Source of the DNA: Acaryochloris thomasi RCC1774
GTDB taxonomy: Bacteria > Cyanobacteriota > Cyanobacteriia > Thermosynechococcales > Thermosynechococcaceae
Length of the DNA stretch: 32,000 nucleotides
Reading direction: 5' to 3'
Assembly (NCBI RefSeq): GCF_003231495.1
Contig: NZ_PQWO01000032.1
Location: 7,300 to 39,299 of the forward strand
Shown: positions 13,555 to 28,427 of the stretch, piece by piece
How the letters are laid out: every line of letters begins with the position of its first letter
Position numbering within the stretch: position 1 is the stretch's first letter
Notes under the pieces: model-generated
What the model saw: only the letters and a program-made list of their open reading frames with translations
Told to the model about the DNA's origin: nothing
The model's database searches: none
Made by a program: the position numbers and the translations under genes

Positions 13555-13571
13555 AAAGTAGAGCCAAGATA

Positions 13572-14494: not shown

Positions 14495-14567
14495 GGTATT
14501 TCTCCTTTTTCCCTGTAGCGGTTGGGTTTACGGAAGTGCGGCGGTGGGGGCGCTTGGCCCCCTTGCG
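14495..14567 (-). repeat. Intercistronic module copy A1
   Basis: Gene-direction order is stop, GGGGGC-loop-GCCCCC hairpin (14546-14562), CGTAAACCCAACCGCTACAGGGAAAAAGGAGAAA, then ATG. Confidence 0.7.
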
Positions 14568-14762
14568 TTAGTCCTGAAGGAATCGAGCGAACTCTAGTGA
14601 CTCGTTCGCATAATCTGGGTCAATCTCTAGGCAGTTCTCGAAGTAAGTCGAGACTGCATCGCCTTGAGAGCTGCCAGTCCCTACTGGGAAGCGCTCGGCG
14701 TCGTCGGCTGTGTCGTAAGCAATCCAGGTTCTAGGAATTGGGACGGTTTCGGTCTGAATCAT
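14568..14762 (-). CDS. Small acidic protein (64 aa), paralogue of 27781..27978
   Basis: It shares PIPxTW.A.D..DD.E.F.V.TG.S...A...YF(E/D)NCLEIDP.Y.N.S.EF.RF with the second copy. Confidence 0.65.
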   Translation of the reverse strand: MIQTETVPIPRTWIAYDTADDAERFPVGTGSSQGDAVSTYFENCLEIDPDYANESLEFARFLQD

Positions 14763-14838
14763 ATGTATTTCTCCTGTAGTCCCTTCGTGGCGTTGGGGGG
14801 CAGTAGTGGGTTGAGGGGGCGCGGTGCCCCCCTAGTCT
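14763..14838 (-). repeat. Intercistronic module copy A2 (degenerate)
   Basis: GGGGGC/GCCCCC hairpin at 14815-14831. CTACAGGAGAAA precedes the ATG. Confidence 0.55.
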
Positions 14839-15099
14839 TTAAGCTTTCAAGTCAGTACCGTAGAGTCTTGTGATCGAGTAGAACTGGCGACTTAGCTCTT
14901 GAAAGCGGTTTGCAAGGTCGTCTTGCTCATCCCGTCCGCCATCAGCGATATCGAGATAGTTGTTCATGGCTGAGGCAAGGTCGCTAAGGTCGGCAACAAA
15001 AGCCTTGGTATCGGCCTCAATCTCCATCGCCTGAAGCATCGCAACAGGATAGGACTGCTCAGGATGAAAGTTGACGATTGGCGTTAGAGTAGTAGTCAT
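14839..15099 (-). CDS. Hypothetical acidic protein (86 aa), first gene of operon A
   Basis: AAGGAA RBS present. It is preceded by a conserved leader and a consensus-like promoter. Confidence 0.6.
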   Translation of the reverse strand: MTTTLTPIVNFHPEQSYPVAMLQAMEIEADTKAFVADLSDLASAMNNYLDIADGGRDEQDDLANRFQELSRQFYSITRLYGTDLKA

Positions 15100-15129
15100 A
15101 AGTTATTCCTTGTTGGGTTTAACTGCATC

Positions 15130-15164
15130 GGCATCGCTTACTTCTTGGTCGGAGGGGCGATGCC
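15130..15164 (-). other. Conserved 5'-leader hairpin of operon A
   Basis: GGCATCGC (15130-15137) pairs with GCGATGCC (15157-15164). The leader is homologous in sequence to 28371-28406 ahead of operon B. Confidence 0.5.
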
Positions 15165-15186
15165 TTTGCTTTGTTTGTATATGAAT

Positions 15187-15238
15187 ATTATAAACTATCA
15201 GTTTATAGTTTGTCAATCATAAGCTTATGGTTTATGAT
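15187..15238. promoter_or_regulatory. Back-to-back divergent promoters with overlapping -35 boxes and palindromic operators
   Basis: Minus strand: TTGACA (15216-15211), 18 nt, TATAAT (15192-15187), with the palindrome TATAAAC-TATCA-GTTTATA (15189-15207) overlapping the -10 and covering most of the spacer. Plus strand: TTGTCA (15210-15215), 17 nt, TATGAT (15233-15238), with the palindrome CATAAGCTTATG (15218-15229) in the spacer. Confidence 0.7.
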
Positions 15239-15275
15239 AAGTTCACAGCTTAGAGTTTATAACTAAGGAGTAGAG

Positions 15276-15530
15276 ATGAAGCTAATTGGGATGAAGGTAA
15301 GAAAAGTAATTGATGTTGAAGTTCCTGGGTTGGGACTCCAAATCAAAGAGGCTAGGGAAAGAGACCCGCGTTCTCTGGCTAGTATCTGTCGAGAGATTGA
15401 TATGACACCTATGAATTGGTACAAGATTGAGGCAGAGGGCACTAAGGCTTTGCCTGAAGAAACGTTGCGAGATATTGAGAAGGTGCTTGGTGTCGATCTT
15501 GGGGTCAGCTTTGAAGTGGCTGCTGCTTAG
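15276..15530 (+). CDS. XRE/Cro-type HTH transcriptional regulator (84 aa)
   Basis: LGLQIKEARERDPRSLASICREIDMTPMNWYKIEAEGTKALPEETLRDIEKVLGVDLG fits the HTH_3 pattern. AAGGAG RBS present. It is divergent from operon A. Confidence 0.8.
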   Translation: MKLIGMKVRKVIDVEVPGLGLQIKEARERDPRSLASICREIDMTPMNWYKIEAEGTKALPEETLRDIEKVLGVDLGVSFEVAAA

Positions 15531-15603
15531 TCATCCTTTCGCTTCGGGAATTGAAAGAGTCTAGTTTTGAACATCATTTGTATAGATTGAGGAATCAAGG
15601 GAT

Positions 15604-15867
15604 ATGACGGCAGCAACACCAGACCGACTGGATCGCATAGAGGCGATGATTGAAAGCCTTGCGAATACGTCAGCGAACCTACTGCAGGCCACCAGTAACC
15701 AGGATGCCCGGATGACTCGGATTGAGCAGGCTCACGAATCTAGGCTTGAGAAGATTGAAACCTCTCTCCTGGGGCTGACTGAGATTGCTGGGATAATGGC
15801 GAAGGAGACTCGGCAGCTCAAGCGAACAATGGACTATTTGCTCAGTCATGATGGCGAAAGGAGCTAA
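15604..15867 (+). CDS. Small coiled-coil protein (87 aa)
   Basis: GAGGAA RBS present. It holds the same position after the regulator as 28724..28984 in module B, and both begin MTA(A/S)TP. Confidence 0.55.
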   Translation: MTAATPDRLDRIEAMIESLANTSANLLQATSNQDARMTRIEQAHESRLEKIETSLLGLTEIAGIMAKETRQLKRTMDYLLSHDGERS

Positions 15868-15963
15868 TACAGCTCTGGCTGCAGATTCCCTGTTGGTGGC
15901 AGGTACCCCACTATCTATGCAGCACCTGTGTTGCTGCATCATGACTTTGCCCCGAAAATACCT

Positions 15964-16000
15964 TTCGACAGCTTTTCGCACGTTTTGCAATAGATAGATA
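15964..16000 (+). promoter_or_regulatory. Copy 4 of the bipartite motif
   Basis: TTCGACAGCTTTTCGCACGTTTTGCAATAGATAGATA. TTGCAA is at 15985-15990, 34 nt before GTG 16025. Confidence 0.6.
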
Positions 16001-16024
16001 GCGCTCTACTTAGGTCTGTCCATT

Positions 16025-16372
16025 GTGAAACTGCCAAAACTGTTGCCATTCGGTGCAACCGTATTCCTGATCACCACTCGCACATCCTGGGCAGACAACA
16101 GCCTGGGTAGTTGCATCGTATCGGTGCTGTGTAGCGGGATCGCTTTCCTATATCTCGTATCAGCCTTTCAGCCCAAAGCTCTCTACTTCAATACCCGGTT
16201 TTTCGCGTTCTATTTCATCTCGCTAGCGTATCTGCTGGTGGAAGTTGCGATCGCACAATTTGATTCAGACCCCTATCAGGTGTTGTTTGCTGCCGCTGTC
16301 ACAGGGGTAGCGATGGTATCAGCGCTATTGGTTGAGCTGTTTTTCTTCATGAGGCAAAAGAAATGGATTTGA
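16025..16372 (+). CDS. Small integral membrane protein (115 aa)
   Basis: There are about four hydrophobic segments. The start is GTG with no clear RBS. Its stop overlaps the AAA+ gene start by 10 nt (ATGGATTTGA). Confidence 0.5.
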   Translation: MKLPKLLPFGATVFLITTRTSWADNSLGSCIVSVLCSGIAFLYLVSAFQPKALYFNTRFFAFYFISLAYLLVEVAIAQFDSDPYQVLFAAAVTGVAMVSALLVELFFFMRQKKWI

Positions 16373-17826
16373 TTAACAGACTGCAGCAGGGCTATAGCGT
16401 ATTGGCCCTAGAATCCCCCTTCAGTGAACGGATGCGAGTGCTGGCGGATTTAGAGCAATGGTCAGAGCAGCCGATCTACTTTTGGAGTCCTGGCTATTCC
16501 AAAGTGCTGCAGTACAAGAATAACCGTCTGGTCAGCATCGGACAGATAGATCGCTCAGGCAGCATCAATAGTCCTATGGATTTACTCAATGAGGCAGGGA
16601 TCTACTTACTCGAAGGGGGGCTAGATAAATTCAACCATTTTGTCTGGGTGGATCTGTACCACCGACTCAGGGAAGGCTATACCGTCATTGCCTTGGATCC
16701 TGCTCCAGAGCTGCACGATGATTTACGCGCCATCATTCCCCTAGTGATTGATGCAGTACCTGAATATCGGACTGTAGAGCTATGGCTGTGCGAATATCTC
16801 AATAGATCGCCGTCGCCGCGACTGGTAAGAGCATGTCTGGGCTTGCATCTTGGCGCACTAGAGCAAATATTGGATCGGGTGGACCACGGTGATGAAGATG
16901 CGATGGCCGAAGGCCGGTCGGAGACCATCGCAAATTACGTCATTGGTCAGAAAACCGCTCAGCTCAGCGCGGTCGGTCTAGAGTCGATGGGTCAGCCCGA
17001 TGTCGAGATTGGTGGCCTCGACCAACTCAAAGAAATGCTGCACAAAACCACCAAGCTGTTCAGCCCAGAGGCAAGAGAAGCGGGCCTCAACTATCCCAAA
17101 GGGCTTATTCTCTGGGGTCTCCCCGGTACAGGTAAATCTTTAACAACCAAGACCGCCGCGCATTTGTTGGGTATGCCGCTGCTGGCAACTGACTGGAGCC
17201 AGATTATAGACGACAACAATCCAGCCAAAGCAGCAGCTAACTTGAGAGCCATCATTCAAATTGCGGAAGTTCTCTCGCCCTGCGTCCTGGCCTGGGATGA
17301 CTTTGAGAAGATGCCCCTTGGCGCACTGCACGGCATTTTGCTCACCTGGATGCAGGAGCGGACTAAGCCTGTGTATATCATCAGCAGCGTCAACCGTCTT
17401 GAGAAGCTGCCGCCCGAGATGATCCGGGCCGGTCGCTTTGACCAGATCGTATTTGTCGATCTGCCGAAAGAAGGAGAGCGGCAGGAGATCATCGCGCTTC
17501 ACCTGGCGCGATACACCGAGAGTGTTGAGTTCTCAAAGCTGGACTGGCACAACCTAATTAGTGCCTTCCGCAACTGCACGGCGGCTGAAATAGCTGGTGC
17601 TGTCAAGCAAGCTGCTGAAGAAGCTTTTTGTCAGGATAGGGCGGGGCAGATCACCGTGCAGGATTTGGTGCATCAGCGCAGCTTGTTTGTGCCCTCGATG
17701 ATTCGAGATGAGGATAGTATGTTAGCCATCCGCAAGCTGGCGCACTTGGCTCGCCCTGCCAGCGGTCCCGACAACTCTCAATGGCGAGTACCGCCGAGCG
17801 AGATGTTTGAGTTTATGGAGGATTAA
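16363..17826 (+). CDS. AAA+ ATPase with an N-terminal domain, Ycf46-like in layout
   Basis: Walker A GLPGTGKS. Walker B region CVLAWDDFEK, with DD where AAA proteins usually have DE. Second region of homology SSVNRLEKLPPEMIRAGRFDQIVFVDLP. The resemblance to cyanobacterial Ycf46 is from memory. Confidence 0.8.
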   Translation: MDLINRLQQGYSVLALESPFSERMRVLADLEQWSEQPIYFWSPGYSKVLQYKNNRLVSIGQIDRSGSINSPMDLLNEAGIYLLEGGLDKFNHFVWVDLYHRLREGYTVIALDPAPELHDDLRAIIPLVIDAVPEYRTVELWLCEYLNRSPSPRLVRACLGLHLGALEQILDRVDHGDEDAMAEGRSETIANYVIGQKTAQLSAVGLESMGQPDVEIGGLDQLKEMLHKTTKLFSPEAREAGLNYPKGLILWGLPGTGKSLTTKTAAHLLGMPLLATDWSQIIDDNNPAKAAANLRAIIQIAEVLSPCVLAWDDFEKMPLGALHGILLTWMQERTKPVYIISSVNRLEKLPPEMIRAGRFDQIVFVDLPKEGERQEIIALHLARYTESVEFSKLDWHNLISAFRNCTAAEIAGAVKQAAEEAFCQDRAGQITVQDLVHQRSLFVPSMIRDEDSMLAIRKLAHLARPASGPDNSQWRVPPSEMFEFMED

Positions 17827-17857
17827 CAGGATTTTTGGCTTTTGCAATAGCTAGGTA
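17825..17857 (+). promoter_or_regulatory. Copy 5 of the bipartite motif (variant AACAGG...TTGCAATAGCTAGGTA)
   Basis: TTGCAA is at 17842-17847. The motif starts inside the stop codon context GATTAACAG of the AAA+ gene. Confidence 0.5.
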
Positions 17858-17904
17858 AGCGTTTGACAGGATTTTGGAATTTTTACTAATTGAGGAATTT
17901 CCCT

Positions 17905-18288
17905 ATGAGACCTGAAATGATTTTTTTGAGTGTCGCCATCATGTTTTCGGGTTACTTGGGTTTCCCGCCAGGCGTTTGGTGGGCCTGGACTGTATCTGTC
18001 TTTTCAACGTTCGCTGCGGCTGCGATCGTGTTGTTGTTGTTGCTTGCCGATAAGTCAAAGCTGATGGAGCACCCGCAGCCTGAAATCAGAGCAGCGGTAA
18101 TAGGTGTGATGACTTCAATTGCCCAAACAAACTACTGGTTTATTGGCATTGTGAATCTTGCCTTTGTTTTCGGTTTCACAGCTAAAGGCCGCATATGGCT
18201 TGCGATCGCCATCGCAATATCCACGTTTTCTATGTTTGTTTTGCGCGAGATTGTTTCACGGCAGCTCCAGAGTGCTGCCGTGGATTAA
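17905..18288 (+). CDS. Small integral membrane protein (127 aa)
   Basis: ORF track gives 17890..18288. ATG 17905 follows GAGGA with 8-nt spacing. It has four hydrophobic segments. Confidence 0.6.
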   Translation: MRPEMIFLSVAIMFSGYLGFPPGVWWAWTVSVFSTFAAAAIVLLLLLADKSKLMEHPQPEIRAAVIGVMTSIAQTNYWFIGIVNLAFVFGFTAKGRIWLAIAIAISTFSMFVLREIVSRQLQSAAVD

Positions 18289-18319
18289 CAGCTTTTTTGG
18301 CTTTTGCAATAGATAGCTA
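18287..18319 (+). promoter_or_regulatory. Copy 6 of the bipartite motif
   Basis: AACAGCTTTTTTGGCTTTTGCAATAGATAGCTA. TTGCAA is at 18304-18309. It again begins in a GATTAACAG stop context. Confidence 0.6.
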
Positions 18320-18355
18320 GGGGAACTCCCTAAAGCCGAACTCAATCCATAAGCT

Positions 18356-20509
18356 ATGAACCGATTTTTCTTCACCACCTTACTCCTCACCTCTGTTGGT
18401 CTAACGACCCCGCTATCTGCCTTGCGGGTGAATGCTCAGCAGTCTTCAGGTCTGCCCTTAACCATTGAGGGCGGTCACGGTACGAAAAAGACGATGACCG
18501 TCTCATTAGAGCAGAAGCCAACGAAGAACCTAGGCTTGAACTTGAAGGTCAAGGGTGCTGAAGGTGCCCAGGAAGGCTGGCTCTATGTCAACGGTCAGGT
18601 CGTTGCTCCGCTTTTCTCTTGGTACGCCAATCCATCCAACCGCAACCAGATTGCATCCGTTCGGCTGGTGACGCCTGGGGCAGTTTGGCGGGCCGGTCTC
18701 AACGATGTCACCTTTGTCGCCCGCAACAACAATACGTTTAAGGTACTCACCGCTAATACTTACGAAACCGAGCGTAAGACCCATTTCACAAACATAGCGA
18801 ATCGCAATCGAACATCAACGATCTCAGCCCGAAGGCCAGTCAGACGCAGCTCGTCCTACACCTTGACCCAAGCGCCGCAAGCGATCGCCACCGCATCGGT
18901 GGGCAGAAAGACACTGACGTTAACGGACTTGATCGCCACTGTTACCCAGCCTCACGACGTTCCTGCTCCGGGAGTTCCACAAAGTTTTGATTTCCAGCAA
19001 TACCCCAGACCTAGTGTTGCGTCACGGCCTGAGCGATTGGATCAGCCACTTCCAGCCGGTTCTGGCTACGTCAATACCTGGAATCATATCGATTCCCTGC
19101 AGAGGGATGCAGCCCCGAACGTCAAAGTAGAGATGGGCAGCATGTTCTTATCTTTCTTCAAGGATGGCAAGTGGCATACAACAGAGATGGGACCGCCGTG
19201 CCGTGCCTATACCTATGAATATCCAACGATAGGCACGGGTAAAGATACCGATGTTGCTGCTTGCGAGAACGGGGCTGCTTTTGCGGGGCTAGGTCTAAAG
19301 GGCTGGAATAAGCCAAATCGCCATACCCACGGCTGGGTTCAAAACGGCAGAGTTGGCGTGAATTCTGAAGATGTTGAGCACTTTATGGTTTGGGCCTCTG
19401 CTCGGACTCAACCGATTGACCCGGGTAAGCCTGCAAATCTTGATGGGCAGAACTACCAGTATGGGATTGGCGGGGATTACTTCAATTCTGATGAAGGTCG
19501 GGGTCGCAAGGCAGCGGTTCACTCCAGACGCCAGATCGTAGGCAGTCAATGGAAAACGCTGGTGGGTCACAACATGACGCCGCAAACCATCAAAACGATG
19601 TGCGCTCAGGGTAATTTGCCGTCAGAGCTGCCGCTGGTCGGTGGATGCAGCAGTTCTTCGGGGGCGTTTCGTGCCGGTACGAGCAGTACCCCGAATCCAT
19701 CGCCGAAATCCCTTGCTAAAGCCACGGGTCAAAGCTCTCGAACTCAGACGGCTTCAGTACCTTTCAAGCGCACAGGAACCGGAGTGCTGACGCTCACTCA
19801 ATTAAGAGATGCGGTGACTAAGCCCCACGAGCAAGCTCCGGCACCGACTGTCCCTAGCAGCTACTGCCAAGCCTATAACGGCAAACCAAGCACCCTCAAT
19901 CATCCCAGCAACTCAAGCTGTAAGAATGAATTTGGTGATGATCAGTTCAAAAAGTACCGAACGATAAACCCTTGGTTTGTGGCCTACAGCCGCACAAAAA
20001 CACCGGACACCATTGAAATGGGGGATATGTACATTTCAGTTCTCAAGCGGGGCGTGTGGACAACTCACAACTTTGGCCCACCGGGTCAGGCTTATTTATT
20101 TAAGACAGAATCCCTCAACAAGCGGGAGGCGAAAGATGTTGCCACCCTCGGTAACGGTGTCTCGAAGCTGGGATACGGGTTAGATAAATGGCAGAATCCT
20201 GCGCTCAGCGCCCACGGCTGGCCGGGTCCACATTGGGATATCGCGCTCAATGATGCTGAGCACATGATGGTGTGGGTCGATGCTAGAACCCAGAAGGAAG
20301 GCACTCATGCTGTCGGTGCCGGTCTGGACCTGCGGGACAATGTGCTCAAAACAGGTCTGCCAGCGGCCATCAGAACCCGCCAACGTTTCCTTGGTCCCCA
20401 GTGGACAACGATTGTGGGTCACAATATCCACCCTGACCAGCTCGCAACTATCTGTCAGAAGTATGGGTATCCCAGTGCCTTGAAGGTTGAGGGTTGTCCC
20501 CAGCAGTAG
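18356..20509 (+). CDS. Secreted protein (717 aa) with a signal peptide and an internally duplicated ~250-aa domain
   Basis: Signal-like N-terminus MNRFFFTTLLLTSVGLTTPLSALRVNAQQ. Two homologous halves share LTLT.L...VT.PH, EMG.M(F/Y).S..K.G.W.T...GPP..AY, HGW, EH.MVW..ARTQ and W.T.VGHN..P....T.C. Confidence 0.75.
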   Translation: MNRFFFTTLLLTSVGLTTPLSALRVNAQQSSGLPLTIEGGHGTKKTMTVSLEQKPTKNLGLNLKVKGAEGAQEGWLYVNGQVVAPLFSWYANPSNRNQIASVRLVTPGAVWRAGLNDVTFVARNNNTFKVLTANTYETERKTHFTNIANRNRTSTISARRPVRRSSSYTLTQAPQAIATASVGRKTLTLTDLIATVTQPHDVPAPGVPQSFDFQQYPRPSVASRPERLDQPLPAGSGYVNTWNHIDSLQRDAAPNVKVEMGSMFLSFFKDGKWHTTEMGPPCRAYTYEYPTIGTGKDTDVAACENGAAFAGLGLKGWNKPNRHTHGWVQNGRVGVNSEDVEHFMVWASARTQPIDPGKPANLDGQNYQYGIGGDYFNSDEGRGRKAAVHSRRQIVGSQWKTLVGHNMTPQTIKTMCAQGNLPSELPLVGGCSSSSGAFRAGTSSTPNPSPKSLAKATGQSSRTQTASVPFKRTGTGVLTLTQLRDAVTKPHEQAPAPTVPSSYCQAYNGKPSTLNHPSNSSCKNEFGDDQFKKYRTINPWFVAYSRTKTPDTIEMGDMYISVLKRGVWTTHNFGPPGQAYLFKTESLNKREAKDVATLGNGVSKLGYGLDKWQNPALSAHGWPGPHWDIALNDAEHMMVWVDARTQKEGTHAVGAGLDLRDNVLKTGLPAAIRTRQRFLGPQWTTIVGHNIHPDQLATICQKYGYPSALKVEGCPQQ

Positions 20510-20510
20510 T

Positions 20511-21698
20511 TCAGTCAATTTCCCAGCCGTCGTCTTCGACCTCGATCTCCGGGTCGATCTCTGAGTAGCGTTCTGGGAAAAGCTCCTGTTCATAGGACTC
20601 GAACATTCTGATATCTTCAGAGGTCACCGCATATTGAACTCTGTCGTTTGTCTCAGTGAAAATAACGCCCCGTTCATCTGTGGCTGAGATAGTGAGCTTA
20701 TCGTCTGAGAACTCAAGCACATAGTCGTCGTTAACCAGTCGATTGACTCCCTTGTCTTTGGCCTCTTCCCGATAGAAGTTTGCGACATCTGAGAAGGTTT
20801 CAATCGTGCTTTGATCTAGCTCATTGTCCTTATCGAGTGCTGGCTCTGGTGCTGGGTAAACCCACGGCTCGATTTCCCTGCCGCTTACCTGTGAGACCAG
20901 TCGTTCGAGTAATGTTGCCATCTGGAAGGGGCCAACGCCACCCGGTACCGGCGTCAAATGCTGGGGAATGTCGTAGGCAGAGCGACTGACATCACCGCGA
21001 GGTTTTCCTTCGCCGGGAATGAAGCCTGCATCGACGACTAGGCGGTGTTCGGGGATGATGTGTTGCTCATCCAAAAGCTCGGGTGTACCTGTGGCTGAAA
21101 CGACGATATTCGCTTTACGGGTTTGGGTTTCGTCATCTCCGATTTCGATTTCTATGGTGTCGATACCAGCTTCTTTGAGGAGTTTGACGACTCCTTCGCC
21201 CACGTAGCCGCCAGCGCCAACGACAGCTACGGTATCTCCTTCCTGAGCGAAGGATTCGACTAAGCGGTAAATTGTCTCAGAAGTAGCCGAGGTAGGGAAG
21301 TAGGGATTATCGCTGCGCATCCCATCGATGTCTTTCTCGAAAGAGATTTGCGGTAGTAGCTTCTTTAAGTCGTCAGGAATTGGATTCTGGACAATCAAAC
21401 CAACAGAGTTTGCATTGGCCTCTATCAATAGATTCCTAAAGACATCCGGCGTAGTGAGAGAATCAAGTATAGGTTGTTTAACTTGACAGCCAAGTGCTGA
21501 AAATGTTTTCGCTTTATGCTCTGTCGAAAATCGAGCGGCTTCGTATTTTGCAAGTTCAATGGGGTCTTGTTCTGTTTCAGGCGGTAGGAAGCGAATAATT
21601 GTTACCTGTTCCTGGTTGCAGATGTTTTGAAACTCAGCCAGCCTGGATTTAACTTGTTTGAGGATAGAACTACCGTTGACTTTAGATGTCACGGGCAA
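20511..21698 (-). CDS. FolD-like (methylene-THF dehydrogenase/cyclohydrolase fold) protein with a ~110-aa acidic C-terminal extension
   Basis: LTPVPGGVGPFQMATLLERLV matches the FolD signature TPVPGGVGPMT. DIDGM and VAVVGAGGYVGEGV match the DVDG and NAD(P)-binding segments. The start is TTG 21698 or GTG 21692. The canonical PCTP segment reads PTSA here. Confidence 0.7.
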   Translation of the reverse strand: MPVTSKVNGSSILKQVKSRLAEFQNICNQEQVTIIRFLPPETEQDPIELAKYEAARFSTEHKAKTFSALGCQVKQPILDSLTTPDVFRNLLIEANANSVGLIVQNPIPDDLKKLLPQISFEKDIDGMRSDNPYFPTSATSETIYRLVESFAQEGDTVAVVGAGGYVGEGVVKLLKEAGIDTIEIEIGDDETQTRKANIVVSATGTPELLDEQHIIPEHRLVVDAGFIPGEGKPRGDVSRSAYDIPQHLTPVPGGVGPFQMATLLERLVSQVSGREIEPWVYPAPEPALDKDNELDQSTIETFSDVANFYREEAKDKGVNRLVNDDYVLEFSDDKLTISATDERGVIFTETNDRVQYAVTSEDIRMFESYEQELFPERYSEIDPEIEVEDDGWEID

Positions 21699-22170: not shown

Positions 22171-22999
22171 TGGCTGACCTCCGAAATCCGGGTATCGATA
22201 CTTGAGCCTTGTCCTGATACTTGCAGATGGCCTCGGGCATCCAGTCTGCCCAGCCTTGCGCCATTCCATCATACCCGTGACGCCCCTTGTAGAGCTGCTG
22301 TAGCTCCTGCGCCCACTGCCCATAGTTTGAGCGACCGATTTCACCTTCAGAGGTCTGCACGTAATCTACCAGCACTTGAGCGTTAAGTCCTATCTCCCGG
22401 CCACCGGCCACGCACTGAACAAAGTACTCATAATCGCAGAATACCCGGTAGTCAGGGTTCCAGTGGGGTGCCCCCTGGCGTCGGTGGGTGAACCCGTTGC
22501 TATCGAACAGCGATCGCTGAGCAATCAGGTCCGCGATTGTGTCATCTGCCTGGGGTGAGATAAAAGGCTTTCCTGTTTTGACCACTTGCCCTTCGCTGAT
22601 CACGTCTCGCCGTCGCCACTGCTGCGGCAAACAGCCGAAGTGCTTAGGGTGTTGCTCAAACCATTGGAGCGTATTGGCGACAAACTCAGGTCTTAGCTCG
22701 TTGTCATCATCGAGGTAGCAGACGAGATCGCCCTGAGCGTTATCAATACCGAGGTTACGAGCAATGCATAGGCCGAAGCCATCTTGAGGGTGATCGATTT
22801 CGATGTAGTGGGTGTGGAAGGGAAATCTTGAGTTTTGCAGTAGGTCTCGGGTGGTGAGGTCTTTGCCGTCATTGATGACGACCCACTCAAAATCGAGACA
22901 GGTCTGATGGAGCAGGCTGGGGAGTGCGATCGCTCGAAGCAGATCGGGGCGGTGGTGGGTAGCAGTGATGATGGATAGAGTGAATGGCTGTTCTCCTGT
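22163..22999 (-). CDS. Family-2 (GT-A) glycosyltransferase with no canonical start codon
   Basis: My translation upstream of the listed ORF (22163..22630) reads FTLSIITATHHRPDLLRAIALPSLLHQTCLDFEWVVINDGKD...ARNLGIDNAQGDLVCYLDDDNEL, a typical GT2 N-terminus with a DxD motif. The frame is open from 22999 with AGGAG at 22997-22993. The first in-frame ATG, GTG or TTG is at 22630. Confidence 0.65.
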   Translation of the reverse strand, partial: TGEQPFTLSIITATHHRPDLLRAIALPSLLHQTCLDFEWVVINDGKDLTTRDLLQNSRFPFHTHYIEIDHPQDGFGLCIARNLGIDNAQGDLVCYLDDDNELRPEFVANTLQWFEQHPKHFGCLPQQWRRRDVISEGQVVKTGKPFISPQADDTIADLIAQRSLFDSNGFTHRRQGAPHWNPDYRVFCDYEYFVQCVAGGREIGLNAQVLVDYVQTSEGEIGRSNYGQWAQELQQLYKGRHGYDGMAQGWADWMPEAICKYQDKAQVSIPGFRRSANG

Positions 23000-23105
23000 T
23001 TAGATGTAGAAACTTTCCAGTCTCTTCAGCATAAGCATTCATGCATTGTCAGGCTCTATAAATTGACCCGTCCGTTTTGTTCGTGAATCTGTATGACAAA
23101 TGTAG

Positions 23106-23294
23106 ATGTCAATATTGGTGAACCAAATGAAACAAGATCAAGACCATAGCCAGAGCAAGTCTAAAGTTCAGCAGATAACCGACTTTATCGTAATCGCGAT
23201 GCTTGTCTTTCCAATTGCAGGCTGGTTGGGTAACTTGCTTCAGCCAGCGCCACCCGATAATCAAGTTCCGGCTGCATGGAGTGACGAGCGCTAG
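23106..23294 (+). CDS. Possible small membrane protein (62 aa)
   Basis: One hydrophobic segment (FIVIAMLVFPIAGWLGNLL). No clear RBS. It is an isolated plus-strand ORF between minus-strand operons. Confidence 0.25.
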   Translation: MSILVNQMKQDQDHSQSKSKVQQITDFIVIAMLVFPIAGWLGNLLQPAPPDNQVPAAWSDER

Positions 23295-23332
23295 CAATAA
23301 TCAAGTCTGAAGCCTGTCCTACTGTGGTTGTG

Positions 23333-23497
23333 TCAAGCTTCAGGTTTTCCCCTCTCCTGTGCCCTCTCCTGCGCTGCCACAGCCCTCGCCTCAGCATTCC
23401 TCTGGTTCCACTGCTGTCGGGTTTCGTCGGGGTTGGTGGACTTGGGTGGTGCAAATGTTCGGTGGCTGTAGTTGCCTCTGCCTTCTTTAGCTTTCAT
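23333..23497 (-). CDS. Possible small basic protein (54 aa) coupled to the kinase stop
   Basis: ATG 23497 overlaps the kinase stop codon region (ATGAAAGCTAA). No family recognised. Confidence 0.3.
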   Translation of the reverse strand: MKAKEGRGNYSHRTFAPPKSTNPDETRQQWNQRNAEARAVAAQERAQERGKPEA

Positions 23498-24599
23498 GGT
23501 GTTCATTCGTAGGTTGTCTTGATGTGAAGGCTCTAACGGCACTGATTAAAAACAGTCCAATGAAGAGCCATTGAGAGGTATTCATTGCGGTTGAAGTGAT
23601 CTTTGAGAACCCAGGAATATCAAAGACATCTGATGTATTCAAAACTATTGGGCGCATGATGATTACTGTCCCTACACCGCAAGCCGCTGCTGCAGGGGTA
23701 GCAAATCTTGCGAGAGTGGTTTGCTCATCTTGTCTTGCGAGGGCGCTGATTTCCTCGTCCCGCGCTAATTGACTCTCCTCTTTCTTTGTGATGTCTGCAG
23801 GATCAGCCTCCTTAAGCGCTTGGAGTGCAGCATCTGCCGACTGAAAACGTCGTCCTAGAACATCATCGATCATCTTATCGAGGACATCTGCGAACTCTTC
23901 GCGGACTGGTTTCCCGGCCAGCTCAAGCCGCCACTGCAGAGCGCCGGTCATTGGGTCTGCTGCAATGCTCATTGGGCTGGTGCCAGTAAGCAGATGAATG
24001 CAAGTCATTCCCAGGCTATAGATATCACTAGCAAAGGTTGTTTTACCTCGCATCTGCTCAGTTGAGGCATAGCCCACTGAACCGATCATGGTGCCGGTTT
24101 TAGCTAGCACCGTCTCTGAAACTCGCTTTGCAGCTCCGAAGTCCACCAATACCAGCGCACCGTCGCTCTGTCGTCGAATGATGTTGGCGGGCTTGATATC
24201 GCGGTGAATGACCCCGCTGCCGTGCAAGTAGCGCAGTAGCGGCAAGATGCCCTTTAGTAGGCTGTCGATCTCCTCTTCAGTAAAAGTTTGACCTTTCTGG
24301 AGGCTTTGCTGCAGGCTTTCTCCAGCGATGTACTCTTGAACGATAAATAACCTGCTACCTTCCTCGAAGAAGTCGTAAAACTCGGGAATCTGGGGATGTG
24401 TGCCCACTTCTTTGAGTCGTTCGGCTTCTTGACGGAATAGCTGGGTGGCCTGCTCTGAAGCATTTTCCTGAGACGGCGCGAATTCTTTGATAACACAGCG
24501 CTTTCGGTTGCTGGACTCGGCCAGATACGTTTTTCCGAACCCGCCTTTGCCTAGCTCTCTGATGATTCGATAGTTGTTGAGCAAAATTGTTGAGTTCAT
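23487..24599 (-). CDS. Hanks-type Ser/Thr protein kinase with a C-terminal hydrophobic anchor (370 aa)
   Basis: LGKGGFGKTYLA (Gly loop), VIKEF (catalytic Lys), HRDIKPANII, DFGAAK and GSVGYASTEQ. ORF track gives 23487..24719. ATG 24599 lies 8 nt after the upstream stop. The C-terminus has the hydrophobic segments VGTVIIM and WLFIGLFLISAV. Confidence 0.85.
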   Translation of the reverse strand: MNSTILLNNYRIIRELGKGGFGKTYLAESSNRKRCVIKEFAPSQENASEQATQLFRQEAERLKEVGTHPQIPEFYDFFEEGSRLFIVQEYIAGESLQQSLQKGQTFTEEEIDSLLKGILPLLRYLHGSGVIHRDIKPANIIRRQSDGALVLVDFGAAKRVSETVLAKTGTMIGSVGYASTEQMRGKTTFASDIYSLGMTCIHLLTGTSPMSIAADPMTGALQWRLELAGKPVREEFADVLDKMIDDVLGRRFQSADAALQALKEADPADITKKEESQLARDEEISALARQDEQTTLARFATPAAAACGVGTVIIMRPIVLNTSDVFDIPGFSKITSTAMNTSQWLFIGLFLISAVRAFTSRQPTNEHHES

Positions 24600-24606
24600 G
24601 CTTTTT

Positions 24607-24903
24607 TTACTCGCTCTTTTGGGCTTGATGCTTCTTGACTTTTCCGGCCAGTGTCTTGAGTTGAGAGCGCAGCTCCTCAATACTTTGACACAGCCTTCGC
24701 TCCTCTCCTCGAAGCGCACTGAGAACAGTTGTCCGCGACATTTCCTTTACGGCTTTCCAGAGTAGTTCGTTGGCCTGCTGTGGCTTTGCTTGGGCGGCAT
24801 TTGTAAGCAAGCCAGAGATTAGGAGGCTTTGAGTTTCTGGCAGCAGCTCTAGATTGATATCAGCTTGCGTATGAGTAGCGGGGCTGTGCTTAATAGCCTG
24901 CAT
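24607..24903 (-). CDS. Hypothetical protein (98 aa) with a coiled-coil C-terminus
   Basis: ORF track gives 24607..24984. ATG 24903 gives a 14-nt overlap with the upstream gene. Confidence 0.45.
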   Translation of the reverse strand: MQAIKHSPATHTQADINLELLPETQSLLISGLLTNAAQAKPQQANELLWKAVKEMSRTTVLSALRGEERRLCQSIEELRSQLKTLAGKVKKHQAQKSE

Positions 24904-25117
24904 AATCAACCTCGCATGGCCTGATCTTGATTGGAATATCTTTGACTTGCAGGTGAGCGGAGTAATATCTCCAGGCATCATCACAGGCTCGAAGCTCAGC
25001 TCCTGGCTGCACTAGGTTTTCGTTGAGTGCTTGAGCGTTATTTGAAAGCTTTTCCAGTACGCTATCGAAAGGGACCGGAGCTTTTTTGACCTGATCGTTG
25101 ATTCGGAATTGCGCCAT
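24890..25117 (-). CDS. Small protein (75 aa) homologous to the N-terminus of 25176..25688
   Basis: ORF track gives 24890..25222. ATG 25117 follows AAGGAAAG and lies 31 nt after the TTGCAA of motif copy 7. ALNENLVQPGAELRA...AW..Y parallels ALNESLLAPDAHHRA...GW..Y. Confidence 0.55.
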   Translation of the reverse strand: MAQFRINDQVKKAPVPFDSVLEKLSNNAQALNENLVQPGAELRACDDAWRYYSAHLQVKDIPIKIRPCEVDYAGY

Positions 25118-25136
25118 TTGTCTTTCCTTGGGTCTT

Positions 25137-25172
25137 TCTACTTGTCTATTGCAACTGCGGCAAAAAGCTGTT
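25137..25172 (-). promoter_or_regulatory. Copy 7 of the bipartite motif, heading the kinase operon
   Basis: The minus strand reads AACAGCTTTTTGCCGCAGTTGCAATAGACAAGTAGA. TTGCAA is at 25154-25149. It starts 4 nt after the stop of the upstream gene. Confidence 0.6.
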
Positions 25173-25175
25173 GAT

Positions 25176-25688
25176 TCACGCTGTAGCCTGTCCATAAAAA
25201 CGGCTGGCTTGACCTGCGGCATTCCCCTGGCAAACGCTAGCCCACTCCTCGAACAGCTTCCGCTCTGCCACAGTCCACGGCAGCATCCGCCGCAGGTCCG
25301 CTAGCGCTTCCCTGGCTTGCCAGTGCTCAGAGAAGTAGCCCTCGACCATTGCCCAGTTGCAGAGCACTACGTCTCTGAACGTCCGGGCTTCGTGAGGCGT
25401 GAGCTTCCCCGAAATCGGCGGTAAACCTTCGTCTAAACAAAAGCCGATCAGGTCATCGCGAGTATAGCCAGTGAACCCCTTCAGCAATCGCCAGTCAACT
25501 ACAGCCGTCTTGGGCTGACTTGGGTTCAACTGCTGCTGGTACTGCTGCCAGCCTGCAGCCGTAGCGCGGTGGTGGGCATCGGGGGCCAGAAGTGATTCGT
25601 TAAGAGCGATCGCATCTTGCTTGAGCGGCACGATCACTTGTGAGAAGGCTCTGGAATACTTTGGTACCTTTTCGTCGAGGAAGCTCAT
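25176..25688 (-). CDS. Hypothetical protein (170 aa), last gene of operon B
   Basis: ATGA overlap with the upstream gene. No family recognised. Confidence 0.6.
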   Translation of the reverse strand: MSFLDEKVPKYSRAFSQVIVPLKQDAIALNESLLAPDAHHRATAAGWQQYQQQLNPSQPKTAVVDWRLLKGFTGYTRDDLIGFCLDEGLPPISGKLTPHEARTFRDVVLCNWAMVEGYFSEHWQAREALADLRRMLPWTVAERKLFEEWASVCQGNAAGQASRFYGQATA

Positions 25689-26173
25689 GCCCTCACCCCC
25701 TGAGCTGCCCGAACGTTAGCGATCGCCTGCCCAGCGACGGCTCTCCAGTCGGTGTTCTCGTCCCACTCCAGAAAGATGCGCTTGTACCCTAACCAGACAT
25801 TGCAGAACAAGACAGATTCATCCTGCGTTCCTGGCTGCGCTTCCAGGGTGACGGGCTGCTGCAGTTGAGCCGGTGTTAGACTTGCGATCGCAACTAGAAA
25901 GCTTTTGGCGAACGTAGAATCATGGCCGCATTCAATGACGACGGGGCGGTGCGCGGCAAGGGTGATATTGAGTTTGCAGCACTCCTTGCCTCGCCGCTCA
26001 ACCTTCGGAAACTCGATGGCCTTTAGATAGCCGGTGAGGGACGGTCGAAGCTCTTGTGGCTCACTATCAACGAGCTGGAACCAGAGCTTATTGCCATTGG
26101 CTCTGTGGGCATAGAGATAGAGGGTACGGAGTGATTCTCCAAATCCTAGGGGTCTGTGATGGAGCGTCTGCAT
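25685..26173 (-). CDS. Hypothetical protein (162 aa)
   Basis: It starts 3 nt after the upstream stop and is tightly packed in the operon. Confidence 0.6.
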   Translation of the reverse strand: MQTLHHRPLGFGESLRTLYLYAHRANGNKLWFQLVDSEPQELRPSLTGYLKAIEFPKVERRGKECCKLNITLAAHRPVVIECGHDSTFAKSFLVAIASLTPAQLQQPVTLEAQPGTQDESVLFCNVWLGYKRIFLEWDENTDWRAVAGQAIANVRAAQGVRA

Positions 26174-26176
26174 TGT

Positions 26177-26398
26177 TCAAATCTCCTTTGCTTCGATAGT
26201 GATGAGTTGCTGTCTGGCTCCCTGCATAAGAGCTGGGATTTCTAGCAGGTGTAGAGCAGACGACGGGCACAGGAGCGCTGCACCCCTGGCCGTGATATGA
26301 CCGCTTTCGAGTAGGCTATTAAGCTGGCCCACGGTGACGAGCGAAACAACATTTTCGGGGTCGCTCTGTAGCTGTGGCGGTAGGTTTAATGAATGCAT
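26177..26398 (-). CDS. Hypothetical small protein (73 aa)
   Basis: ORF track gives 26177..26518. ATG 26398 follows GAAGGA and avoids overlapping the upstream gene. Confidence 0.45.
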   Translation of the reverse strand: MHSLNLPPQLQSDPENVVSLVTVGQLNSLLESGHITARGAALLCPSSALHLLEIPALMQGARQQLITIEAKEI

Positions 26399-26481
26399 GT
26401 CAGTGAGTCCTTCTGATTGGATAAATATTTCTGTGCTGGGTGGCCGCGAGAGAGTTGAGATCGCAAGTAAAACCCCAGCAA

Positions 26482-26856
26482 TCACGAGCCTTCGTATTCC
26501 GAGGGCAGCATCAGACAACCCTCGACAACGAATAGCTCTAGTTCAGGTAGGGGGAAGGCTGTAGCCCGGACTTGACGGCCAAACTCTGGAGATGTGTTGA
26601 GCCTATCCCTGTAGCAAAACAGGACAGGAGTGCTGCCATTGTGGAATTTCCAGCATTGGAACTGCTGTAGTTCTTTGCTCTCTGTAATGCTGGTGCCTTT
26701 TTGGTGAGATGAGATCGCAAGTACTAACCACTCAATTTCAAGCTTTTCAATGGTGTATAGAATTCCATCTGTGTATAAAAGGCCAGTGAAATGTCGATGG
26801 CGGGTTGGGCTAGGCTGAAACTGCCTGAGCCGTTGCTCAAGTTCTTTCGGTTTCAT
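26482..26856 (-). CDS. Hypothetical protein (124 aa), tandem paralogue of 26933..27310
   Basis: It shares LYT(D/E)G, W(L/V)..AI.SHQK, LQ.FQ.W and L.L(F/Y)...G.L(M/L)LPSE(Y/H) with its neighbour. AGGAG RBS present. Confidence 0.7.
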   Translation of the reverse strand: MKPKELEQRLRQFQPSPTRHRHFTGLLYTDGILYTIEKLEIEWLVLAISSHQKGTSITESKELQQFQCWKFHNGSTPVLFCYRDRLNTSPEFGRQVRATAFPLPELELFVVEGCLMLPSEYEGS

Positions 26857-26932
26857 GTGTCTTACTCCTGTATGGCCCTTGCAGTGGTCGGGCGTTTGTA
26901 TTGCTGCGGGGGCGCTATGGCCCCCAATAGCT
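26857..26932 (-). repeat. Intercistronic module copy B3
   Basis: GGGGGC/GCCCCC hairpin at 26908-26925. ATACAGGAGTAAGACAC precedes the ATG. Confidence 0.6.
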
Positions 26933-27310
26933 TTAGTGTTCGGAGGGAAGCAGTAGCGTTCCTTGCTCCAGATAGAGCTTGATGCTCTCTAGAGGAAAGT
27001 TCGTCATCGGTATGAGTTGTGTGATCGCAGGTTCGCAGGTGCTGGGGCTGTCTTCGTAGCAGGCTAGGACTGCGCTTTTGTCCTTATTGACTGTGAGTGT
27101 CCAGAGCTGGAACTCTTGTAAATCAGGGTTGTATATGATCTGATAGCTTTTCTGGTGAGATGCGATCGCATCGATGAGCCAATGTGCTCCAGCCTCGTCA
27201 GCCAGCGTTTTGACGCCTTCTGTGTATAAGATTTTCAGCCAATGCTTATACAGCGTTTCGCTGCCAATGCATTGCGCGAGTTCTGCCTGTAGCTTTTCTG
27301 CTGTAATCAT
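26933..27310 (-). CDS. Hypothetical protein (125 aa), tandem paralogue of 26482..26856
   Basis: See the paralogue entry. An AAGGAA RBS lies in the conserved module. Confidence 0.7.
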   Translation of the reverse strand: MITAEKLQAELAQCIGSETLYKHWLKILYTEGVKTLADEAGAHWLIDAIASHQKSYQIIYNPDLQEFQLWTLTVNKDKSAVLACYEDSPSTCEPAITQLIPMTNFPLESIKLYLEQGTLLLPSEH

Positions 27311-27373
27311 TTGTATTCCTTTCCCTGTAGCGATGGGTTTACGGTCTGGACGCGACTCATATCCGACCTGTGC
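27311..27373 (-). repeat. Intercistronic module copy B2 (different hairpin)
   Basis: It keeps CCGTAAACCCATCGCTACAGGGAAAGGAA. The GC hairpin is replaced by GGTCGGA...TCCAGACC. Confidence 0.6.
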
Positions 27374-27703
27374 TTAGCCTTGGTCTTGTTGAGCCGCGCA
27401 ATAGTATTCGTCTATCGTCTGCATCTTGCCGATGTACAGCCCGAGTGCTCTTTCCCATTGCGGAATGAGGTATTGCTGTTGCCACTGTGTTGGTTGCTTA
27501 ATGCCCTTCTCGAAGCTTAAAAGGTTGTCGATAACCCGCTGGCAGTTTTCAACAATGCCGTATGCACCATGAGCTATCCAGTGCTTGTCACCGTTGGCGG
27601 AGAGCTTTGTCTCAAGTTCAGAGCCAGTATCGTCTTCGCTTGTTAGAGCCAAAAGCTCGTCAATTGAGTGGGAGAGGGTGTTGATAAAATCCGTGGCTTT
27701 CAT
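27374..27703 (-). CDS. Hypothetical protein (109 aa)
   Basis: GGAG RBS in the conserved module. No family recognised. Confidence 0.6.
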   Translation of the reverse strand: MKATDFINTLSHSIDELLALTSEDDTGSELETKLSANGDKHWIAHGAYGIVENCQRVIDNLLSFEKGIKQPTQWQQQYLIPQWERALGLYIGKMQTIDEYYCAAQQDQG

Positions 27704-27780
27704 GGGTCTTTCTCCTTTTCCCTGTAGCGATGGGTTTACGGAAGTGATGCGGCGGGGCGCTATGGCCCCTGTTGTTTGCG
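27704..27780 (-). repeat. Intercistronic module copy B1
   Basis: GGGGC/GCCCC hairpin at 27754-27769, then CACTTCCGTAAACCCATCGCTACAGGGAAAAGGAGAAA. It is nearly identical to copy A1. Confidence 0.7.
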
Positions 27781-27978
27781 TTAGTAGGTCCGCATGAAGC
27801 GAACGAATTCAGACGAATCGTTCATGTAATGGGGATCTATCTCCAGGCAATTGTCGAAGTAGTTTGCGATAGCTTGGTCTGGTGATTTGCCCGTGCTGAC
27901 TGCGAATATCTCAGGGTCATCGTTGGAATCTGAGGCAGTCCAGGTGCATGGTATTGGTGCGGCTGCAACGTTAAGCAT
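27781..27978 (-). CDS. Small acidic protein (65 aa), paralogue of 14568..14762
   Basis: ORF track gives 27781..28158. ATG 27978 follows GGAGAA, and the alignment with the 64-aa paralogue starts there. Confidence 0.65.
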   Translation of the reverse strand: MLNVAAAPIPCTWTASDSNDDPEIFAVSTGKSPDQAIANYFDNCLEIDPHYMNDSSEFVRFMRTY

Positions 27979-28055
27979 TAGTATTCTCCGGTTGTACCCC
28001 TGTAGCGCTGGGGTTTGCAATAGTGAGGCGATGGGGGCGCTGCGGCCCCCTTTGG
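27979..28055 (-). repeat. Intercistronic module copy B4
   Basis: GGGGGC/GCCCCC hairpin at 28033-28050. CAGCGCTACAGGGGTACAACCGGAGAA precedes the ATG. Confidence 0.6.
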
Positions 28056-28370: not shown

Positions 28371-28406
28371 GGCATCGCTTGTTTCTTGGTGGGAGTAGGC
28401 GATGTC
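28371..28406 (-). other. Conserved 5'-leader element of operon B, homologous to 15130-15164
   Basis: GGCATCGC...TTTCTTGGTGGGAG...GCGATGTC aligns with GGCATCGC...CTTCTTGGTCGGAG...GCGATGCC in operon A. Confidence 0.5.
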
Positions 28407-28427
28407 TTTGCCGTATGTATGTATAAT

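Follow-up and report, generated by a model that had tools for sequence, protein, structure and literature searches.

The stretch of DNA analysed here, referred to as the window, comprises 32,000 nucleotides (nt) of contig NZ_PQWO01000032.1 of Acaryochloris thomasi RCC1774 and is part of a conjugative plasmid with a TrwC relaxase. On its minus strand lie two operons, one with a gene for an ArdC-like anti-restriction protein (operon 1) and one with two DUF6876 genes (operon 2), and six of their intercistronic junctions are occupied by copies (c1–c6) of one composite element, here called the module. In the direction of the genes the module consists of a stop codon, a G+C hairpin of 5–7 bp (the clamp), a G-depleted, C/A-rich spacer of about 30 nt containing a box of the form CCC-N2-3-CGCTACA, a G-run or Shine-Dalgarno (SD) sequence, and the ATG of the next gene. 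Coordinates, counted from the first letter of the window, are compiled in Table 1.

Operon 1 runs from its promoter through a leader hairpin, gene A', c2, gene B', c1 and the ArdC gene to a terminator, whose long stem and T-tail contrast with the short, tail-less hairpins of the junctions. Its promoter overlaps a palindrome that, judging from the sequence, is probably an operator. Operon 2 has the order promoter, leader hairpin, A, c6, B, c5, C, c4, DUF6876, c3 and DUF6876'; after DUF6876' the junctions are tight or overlapping and lack the module. Each operon is probably transcribed from its single promoter into one polycistronic mRNA, and the promoter is probably controlled by a repressor. 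The 65-aa product of gene B is identical to a protein recorded for A. thomasi RCC1774, and a protein search with it returned no homologs beyond this source entry.

Table 1. Features of the two operons and of the surrounding plasmid DNA in the window
Feature	Position	Strand	Description
Operon 1 promoter	15187..15216	-	TTGACA-18-TATAAT; 12/12 consensus match
HTH_31 gene, divergent from operon 1	15276-15530	+	domain match
Operon 1 5'-leader hairpin	15130..15164	-	GGCATCGC...GCGATGCC, then TTAAACCCAAC...AAGGA...ATG; from sequence, with homologues in operon 2 and all A. marina-type operons
Gene A' (86 aa), cistron 1 of operon 1	14839..15099	-	unrelated to gene A; homologous to first gene of locus L014
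c2, junction A'/B'	14763..14838	-	hairpin 14815-14832; degenerate box CCCCCAACGCCACGAAGGG; SD GGAG
Gene B' (64 aa, acidic)	14568..14762	-	paralog of gene B
c1, junction B'/ArdC	14495..14567	-	hairpin 14546-14562; box 14511-14528; SD AAGGAG
ArdC-like anti-restriction gene	13634..14494	-	ArdcN and Peptidase_M78/IrrE domains (domain search)
Operon 1 intrinsic terminator	13566..13613	-	16-bp stem, then TTTAT; read from sequence
Operon 2 promoter	28423..28452	-	TTCACT-18-TGnTATTAT; 9/12 consensus plus TG extension
Operon 2 5'-leader hairpin	28371..28406	-	GACATCGC...GCGATGCC; homologous to operon 1 leader, 87% over 31 nt
Gene A (92 aa), cistron 1 of operon 2	28056..28334	-	sequence and relatives
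c6, junction A/B	27979..28055	-	hairpin 28033-28050; box 27998-28015 (CCCCAGCGCTACAGGGG)
Gene B (65 aa)	27781..27978	-	paralog of gene B'
c5, junction B/C	27704..27780	-	hairpin 27754-27769; box 27720-27737; left 25-nt repeat copy 27717-27741
Gene C (109 aa)	27374..27703	-	without known family; cassette missing from L019, L020 and L022
c4, junction C/DUF6876	27311..27373	-	without G+C clamp; perfect box 27323-27340; right 25-nt repeat copy 27320-27344
DUF6876 gene (125 aa)	26933..27310	-	domain E = 3.4e-41
c3, junction DUF6876/DUF6876'	26857..26932	-	hairpin 26908-26925; degenerate box GCCCGACCACTGCAAGGGC, kept in L019 and L020
DUF6876' gene (124 aa)	26482..26856	-	second paralog (domain search)
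Relaxase gene	6479-10462	-	TrwC fused to C-terminal Toprim-like DUF3854
Candidate nic/oriT	10602-10624	+	GGCGC-GGGA-GCGCC, then GTACTGTCT
FolD-like dehydrogenase/cyclohydrolase gene	20511-21698	-	downstream of operon 2
Eukaryotic-type Ser/Thr kinase gene	23487-24719	-	downstream of operon 2
37-38-nt repeat copies	211-247, 11416-11452, 15964-16000, 17820-17857, 18282-18319	+	TTCGACAGCTTTTTGC..TTGCAATAGATAGATA
37-38-nt repeat copies	10479-10516, 25137-25174	-	
82-nt repeat copies	29149-29230, 30873-30954, 30963-31044		over 3' ends of small plus-strand genes

The first-pass annotation had listed six copies of the module, and these were borne out, all of them reading in the gene direction on the minus strand and standing far above chance. 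With up to three mismatches, the box AAACCCNNCGCTACAGGG matches the window four times, always on the minus strand, against 0.23 expected, and none of 100 shuffles reached four; the clamp GGGGGC-N6-GCCCCC has 7 matches at 5 sites against 1.07 expected. The six copies share 54–80% pairwise identity, compared with 49 ± 4% (95th percentile 54.5%) for random pairs of 76-nt windows. The proposed order of stop codon, hairpin, box and ATG holds as well, with the hairpin 5–11 nt past the stop and the SD between the box and the ATG, and so does the assignment of the clamp to five of the copies, the exception being c4, which has a weak, different hairpin. The box is perfect in c4 and degenerate in c2 and c3. 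Two details needed correction: the spacing of the clamp arms on the plus strand, given as N3/4, varies from N2 to N3, with one G-C pair fewer in c5, and c1 and c5, described as nearly identical, agree at 80% (64 of 80 aligned columns). A search for small leader open reading frames (ORFs) in the six modules found no start codon in any frame. In the window and about 150 kb of related loci, module copies are restricted to these operon junctions and all have the same orientation.

The five pairs of the clamp core, GGGGC/GCCCC, are invariant in 12 of 12 aligned modules. At other junctions, hairpins in analogous positions (after DUF6876, ArdC and other genes) keep their stem through GGGTGGT/ACCACCC, GGCGGTT/AACCGCC, GGGTGA/TCATCC and GGGCGG/CCGCCC, and their core stems contain G.U pairs on the sense strand only and no C.A pairs. 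These double changes and sense-only G.U pairs suggest that the junction hairpins are selected as sense-strand structures, most simply as RNA. Pair-type counts replaced a comparison of sense and antisense folding energies over 48 nt, which was uninformative because the G-rich antisense strand folds better anyway. The spacer, measured from the hairpin to the G-run (18–39 nt), contains 7.5% G and 43.6% C, compared with 22–23% G and 27% C in the adjoining coding sequence, and does so in every lineage; such strand-asymmetric G-depletion is the constraint expected where a stretch must stay single-stranded. Within the spacer the motif [C-run]-N2-3-CGCnnCA occurs twice, just 3' of the hairpin and again as the box, 19–23 nt apart. 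The box lies 11–25 nt upstream of the starts of unrelated genes (B, C, ArdC, DUF6876, a DUF4326 gene and family F1) and can be enclosed by a weak CCC...GGG stem, which has been lengthened independently in c3 (GCCC/GGGC) and c6 (ACCCC/GGGGU). A GGA is found in the thomasi copies (CAGGGAA, AAGGAG) and is missing from some A. marina joints (for example ..CACAGGGGCTAAAT). In predicted folds the clamp hairpin forms in every tested 260-nt context, and the translation initiation region is predicted to be unpaired at 0.63–0.68 for c1–c4 versus 0.43 ± 0.09 for coding windows (95th percentile 0.57).

Other classes of element were considered and rejected. A consensus scan found no sigma-70 promoter in any module in the gene direction, the only promoters being those of the two operons. 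None of the module hairpins is terminator-like on the sense strand, where the tails are C-rich (for example GCCGCATCAC) and have no T-run; two junction hairpins score weakly as terminators, on the antisense strand only. A cmscan of the whole window against Rfam at E ≤ 1 gave only two chance matches to miRNA models, both elsewhere. Integron attC sites (RYYYAAC/GTTRRRY ends, imperfect palindrome of 57–141 nt) do not fit, as no GTTRRRY stands 3' of any copy and the pairing amounts to a 5–7 bp stem. For pdif and other site-specific sites there are no core motifs and no recombinase in the window, IntI-type, Phage_integrase and recombinase domains being absent among its approximately 40 ORFs. A Frpo/ssi single-strand promoter was rejected on the 5–7 bp stems and the lack of -35/-10 hexamers, and an RNase III site of the T7 early-region type (about 20 bp of double-stranded RNA) on a longest stem of 5–7 bp. 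As to a relaxase nic-like site, the plus-strand tails 3' of the hairpins are complements of stop codons and are not conserved.

Relatives of the operons were compared at nine A. marina-type plasmid loci and on four metagenomic contigs or contigs of metagenome-assembled genomes. Their homologous operon comprises a leader hairpin, a first gene, DUF6876, a variable slot and a conserved backbone. In at least nine A. marina-type loci the junction before DUF6876 reads TAG-N9-GGGGCA-N4-TGCCCC-TCCC..CAC..ACCCA(A/C)TCGCT(A/T)CA-(N0-2)-GGG(G)..ATG, with the box part ACCCAnTCGCTACA-GGG-ATG, a sequence that identifies it as the module, with a clamp that differs slightly. A second operon on these plasmids consists of leader hairpin, 73-aa gene, the same module and ArdC; use of the module in two operons is thus ancestral in the genus. 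Rather than being absent from homologous operons, a prospect raised with the first description, the module is conserved across the genus, in A. marina, Acaryochloris sp. 'Moss Beach' and metagenomic Acaryochloris-like plasmids. It is absent from the ArdC loci of Chroococcidiopsis and Gloeothece plasmids. Scans with the thomasi-specific pattern gave only two chance matches in a collection of genome contigs without the source genome and one chance match, inside a coding region, in metagenomes, and blastn with a single 77-nt module returned only noise. A published comparison of Acaryochloris plasmids makes no mention of elements of this kind (PMC9324425).

Several further observations were made at the junctions and leaders of these operons. 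A leader hairpin of the form AAAGGCAYCGC..GCGATGCC, followed by TAGTTAAAACCCAA, stands at the head of every operon in this family (both operons of the window, L003–L014, L023 and L024) and is reused at one internal junction of the A. marina operons; its stem covaries (GGCATCGC/GCGATGCC, GGCACCGC/GCGGTGCC, GGCATCCG/CGGATGCC). The long junction (176–183 nt) before the family F1 gene (L005 4411-4588, L003 4809-4992, L008, L010, L014) contains an unannotated 33-codon ORF for a very hydrophobic product (MNGYTLIWFLFWQFIYFSLFLYFFIPFASEGKP), which has the box in its last codons and a stop overlapping the next start (ATGA). Finally, an unrelated G+C-rich element with a DUF6876 gene (L016 6360-7064) has a joint of its own, GCCCCACGGGGC followed by GAGGAG, at three consecutive small-gene junctions, and hairpin-plus-SD joints may therefore be a wider habit of the early operons of mobile elements.

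Operons 1 and 2 are paralogous anti-restriction/establishment operons, characterized by ArdC and DUF6876. The products of B' and B share 52% aa identity (E = 4e-25), the two DUF6876 genes 34%, and the two 5' leaders have a common 31-nt stretch at 87%. The first-pass annotation spoke of two separate operons; these are paralogous from the 5' leader onwards, so that part of the module reuse is inherited and not independent. Its statement that c1 and c5 are flanked by non-homologous genes likewise applies to the downstream side (ArdC versus the 109-aa gene) and not to the upstream side, where B' and B are homologous. Segment by segment, against a random level of about 51% (maximum 63%), the identity between the operons is 65% in the 5' leader, 55% in A/A' (random level), 69% in c2/c6, 64.5% in B/B', 80% in c1/c5 and 53% in ArdC/gene C (random level). 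The joints are therefore conserved as well as the single shared gene or better, and homology switches on or off at the joints.

Whether gene content between modules varies among related plasmids was a check suggested with the first description, and gene-family maps confirmed that it does. Three thomasi-like relatives from European Nucleotide Archive (ENA) metagenomes form a nested series with the window: L022 has an A-like gene, a c6-type joint and DUF6876, L019 and L020 have B, a joint and DUF6876, and the window has the fullest arrangement, A, c6, B, c5, C, c4 and DUF6876. A perfect 25-nt direct repeat of the box flanks gene C on both sides, and the L020 joint is a chimera of c5 and c4: as far as the box its pattern is identical to that of c5, beyond the box to that of c4, and the changeover falls within the box itself. 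One crossover between the two boxes, or its reverse, would be expected to give this product. In the window the c6-type joint, as far as GGAGAA(A)TACTAATG, stands ahead of gene B, and in L022 ahead of DUF6876. Locus L014 carries one additional gene (71 aa), placed between its first gene and DUF6876, and the slot after DUF6876 is empty or holds F10, a PAPS reductase, F19 plus the reductase, F21 or a duplicate of DUF6876. From these comparisons, small genes have evidently been gained, lost and swapped at the joints, with breakpoints inside the module. Given that the window encodes no recombinase and that the crossover positions differ, general homologous recombination among co-resident related plasmids is the economical mechanism, and we infer that the indels arose by recombination. 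The relatives, gene C between its 25-nt repeats and the chimeric joint thereby support the suggestion of a portable cassette or recombination joint, although a dedicated recombination site is not indicated. Separately, the first 14 codons of gene A (MSLITLAPATAQQS; 28293-28334, minus strand) are common to the otherwise unrelated first gene of L022 (MPLTLAPATAQQS; L022 11-52), which places one mosaic breakpoint within coding sequence, just past the start region.

Domain calls for the approximately 40 window ORFs against Pfam identified a 1327-aa TrwC relaxase with a C-terminal DUF3854 domain, the ArdC-like protein, the two DUF6876 proteins, a Ser/Thr kinase, pentapeptide-repeat proteins and the small HTH_31 protein. 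The closest DNA relatives of the window are MOBF/MPF_T conjugative plasmids of A. marina and of Acaryochloris sp. 'Moss Beach'. At least three contigs of A. thomasi carry DUF6876, and in A. marina MBIC11017 the operon is present on pREB2, pREB5, pREB7 and pREB8. Islands of anti-defence genes are known from the leading regions of plasmids (PMC11541004), and the gene content of the operons and their place beside the relaxase gene match such islands (PMC11541004). Genes of the leading-region type include ArdC in the window and SSB, an orphan methyltransferase, PAPS reductase and DUF4326 in the relatives.

The window also contains two repeats distinct from the module and a possible transfer origin. 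A 37–38-nt repeat occurs in 7 copies (73–90% identity), each just 5' of a backbone gene including that of the relaxase, and by its position looks like a promoter/operator common to a plasmid regulon. An 82-nt repeat, present in three copies (76–87% identity), overlies the 3' ends of small plus-strand ORFs whose products end in ..DEALSAWQEHQGLRSEI; these ORFs look like paralogous small genes and are possibly antitoxin-like. Just upstream of the relaxase gene, the hairpin and tail at 10602-10624 resemble IR2 and nic (ATTGTCT/AT) of the R388 origin of transfer (oriT) and are a candidate nic/oriT. A blastn search of this region against plasmids (PLSDB) gave no match; if the site is nic, the plus strand would be both the transferred strand and the template of both operons.

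On the best-supported reading of these data, the module is an intercistronic element that belongs specifically to this lineage, in the establishment operons on Acaryochloris MOBF/MPF_T conjugative plasmids. We propose, with moderate confidence, that it is an expression joint at the mRNA level, combining an insulating or 3'-protective hairpin with an accessible leader, and that it also serves as a homology patch for the exchange of small genes. One promoter would give one polycistronic mRNA with joints between its cistrons. The G+C stem-loop 5–11 nt past each stop would act as a structural insulator and a barrier at the 3' end; lying so near the stop codon, it would have to be opened by the terminating ribosome, and it could protect processed 3' ends. 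The following approximately 30 nt of unpairable, G-poor, C/A-rich RNA with the box, running into the SD or G-run and the ATG, would then form an accessible leader for ribosome loading, so that small anti-defence genes could be expressed regardless of the upstream gene, wherever they land. With the same 25–75 nt recurring at several joints of both operons and across several co-resident plasmids, the module would also be the place where homologous recombination inserts, deletes and swaps genes. Roles in RNA processing, stability and translation appear compatible with the anatomy, since there is no internal promoter or terminator, the G-poor spacer is strand-asymmetric, and G.U pairs in the related junction hairpins are restricted to the sense strand.

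Several points weigh against this proposal. Action at the RNA level, and with it the insulator, stability and translation roles, is something we infer from sequence features. Because the clamp core is invariant, RNAalifold finds no covariation in the 12-module alignment, in which MAFFT sets the thomasi and marina stems one column out of register. The check for covariation in the stem, suggested with the first description, thus yielded no compensatory changes within the window's own hairpin class and double changes only in hairpins of other junctions, whose homology to that class is positional, not proven. Predicted accessibility is just average in c5 and c6 (41–47%), and whole-module folding energies are no better than those of shuffles, c3 excepted (z = -2.2). 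The related 5'-leader hairpin has a C.A mismatch on the sense strand (equivalent to G.T on the other strand) in at least five loci, which is at odds with a simple sense-RNA reading of that element. Conservation of CGCTACA exceeds the need of a generic accessible leader, and a specific binding partner, either a regulator or a nuclease, fits it better. As for the exchange of genes, repeat-bounded indels locate breakpoints and do not show that the module promotes recombination.

Such a partner could be a trans-acting post-transcriptional regulator, an RNA-binding protein of plasmid or host or a small RNA, with the box as its site, possibly presented on the weak CCC...GGG stem beside the SD. All early establishment genes would then be switched together, much as T4 RegA or CsrA-type repressors act at many translation initiation regions. 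A regulator is favoured by the conservation of CGCTACA, with the CCC/GGG on either side of it, in different species and ahead of unrelated genes, which exceeds what an unstructured leader needs, and likewise by the presence of the motif twice per module at a distance of 19–23 nt, the independent lengthening of the CCC/GGG arms in c3 and c6, and the likeness of CUACAGGGA to the CsrA consensus from in vitro selection (SELEX), RUACARGGAUGU. Yet no RNA-binding or CsrA-like Pfam domain was found among the approximately 40 window ORFs and no antisense copy of the box in the window, the GGA motif is missing from some A. marina joints, and CsrA is not known from cyanobacteria; on balance we consider a regulator rather unlikely. 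A nuclease site is also unlikely, and a little more so. Here the single-stranded spacer would be cut by RNase E or another enzyme, leaving the upstream cistron with a protective hairpin, in functional likeness to the RNase III sites between the T7 early genes. The hairpin directly past each stop, followed by a conserved single-stranded tract, would suit this, and H2-type joints read CGCUAC-AUU, in keeping with the RNase E preference for RN|WUU; processing would moreover be compatible with an expression joint and does not exclude it. The stems of 5–7 bp are, however, far too short for RNase III, and the spacer is C-rich and not A/U-rich, which is atypical for RNase E.

The remaining alternatives concern DNA. 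That module copies stand on both sides of all the variable genes in the operons' 5' part, and that gene C lies between perfect 25-nt direct repeats as after integration of a circle by one crossover, would be accounted for by a dedicated site for site-specific recombination or cassette capture, attC-like or PeSL-mini-circle-like and served by a specific enzyme. We regard this as very unlikely, given that there is no RYYYAAC...GTTRRRY core pair, long imperfect palindrome, or integrase or recombinase domain in the window, and that the crossover lies inside the box for gene C but at or near the ATG for c6/L022, which fits general homologous recombination. A broader version, in which the leading-region operons form an integron-like capture platform and the module is an active exchange site for [leader-ORF-hairpin-box] cassettes, circularised or copied between co-resident plasmids, is in our estimate also unlikely; its candidate mechanism would be a specific reaction on hairpin and box, for example a relaxase- or single-stranded DNA (ssDNA)-based reaction during transfer, instead of chance homologous recombination. 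It is highly improbable that the copies are functionless leftovers of segmental and tandem duplication of genes with their flanks. The operons are indeed paralogous, B/B' and the two DUF6876 genes are duplicates, and the thomasi hairpins share their loop sequences too, suggesting copying over convergence; but the c1/c5 joint (80%) is better kept than the adjoining homologous coding sequence (64.5%), the module has been retained in A. thomasi and A. marina lineages that have diverged to only about 70% identity in DUF6876, and the extreme G-depletion of the spacer is maintained in every lineage. Least probable of all, with only a slight chance, is that the module acts as ssDNA on the transferred strand in conjugation, as an ssi-like priming signal or a miniature ssDNA promoter. 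A hairpin with an adjoining conserved single strand recalls the pattern of the RSF1010 ssi sites, and the relaxase has a Toprim-like DUF3854 domain. The relaxase gene is also within a few kb of the operons, which have the usual orientation of leading-region genes (PMC11541004). Against this, the module has no promoter hexamers and stems of 5–7 bp, compared with the long hairpins of Frpo/ssi promoters (PMC11541004), the G.U-type pairs of related hairpins are on the sense strand, hence on the strand that stays behind if it is the template that is transferred, and the fixed position beside SD and ATG suggests a role in expression. Which strand is transferred is itself assigned only from the likeness of 10602-10624 to the R388 nic region.

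Leading regions are fast-evolving anti-defence islands, and how new small genes enter them and are expressed at once is not understood. For one plasmid family the present locus offers a sequence-defined answer, in that the joint appears to make a cistron expressible in any position and also coincides precisely with the sites where related plasmids differ by the gain, loss or exchange of genes. If the proposed expression joint is correct, it would also represent a natural insulator-plus-leader part for polycistronic expression in cyanobacteria.

Intercistronic stem-loops and repetitive extragenic palindromic (REP) stabilisers are found in the polycistronic mRNAs of the malEFG (REP), puf and pap operons. 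The module shares with them a hairpin without a U-tract just past a stop inside an operon, with an expected barrier to 3'-exonucleases and differential expression of cistrons; those elements, however, are defined by structure, and REPs by genome-wide dispersal, whereas the module has a hairpin of 5–7 bp coupled to a conserved box and a G-poor leader, and has so far been seen in just two operon types of a single plasmid family. As in integrons, promoterless small genes in one orientation are each followed by a structured repeat, and content varies cassette by cassette, but the module lacks both R''/R' core sites and a long imperfect palindrome containing extrahelical bases, the window encodes no IntI, and the breakpoints are not at a fixed position. 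Ribosome standby sites and S1-dependent pyrimidine-rich leaders, such as the tisB standby site and the cyanobacterial rbcS leader that requires S1, similarly have an unstructured, G-poor, pyrimidine- or CA-rich tract directly 5' of the start region and flanked by stable structure; these are single-gene leaders without a conserved box, and S1 binding or standby loading of the module is not indicated. Frpo/ssi promoters are strand-specific structured non-coding elements upstream of anti-defence genes in the leading region, as is the module, but are long hairpins that rebuild the -35 and -10 boxes in duplex form (PMC11541004), whereas the module hairpins are 5–7 bp of pure G+C without promoter hexamers.

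The closest described system is that of the PeSL cassettes of T4-type phages, in which a strong sigma-70-like early promoter and an effective terminator lie between small ORFs and mediate modular shuffling (PMC2839356, PMC4122927). The module differs from PeSL in having no promoter or terminator signals, in lying inside a polycistronic unit with one upstream promoter, and in belonging to a cyanobacterial plasmid rather than a phage. In both cases copies of a short, conserved, composite non-coding motif with a stem-loop separate small non-essential genes, most of them unknown, in the variable regions of a mobile element, and in both, the motif delimits the indels and replacements found between relatives, acting as a homology patch in otherwise unrelated sequence. 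The module is thus the plasmid counterpart of PeSL without promoter or terminator, and, if the proposed function is correct, the concept of mobile regulatory cassettes, framed for PeSL in phages, would be extended to plasmids and to joints acting within an mRNA.

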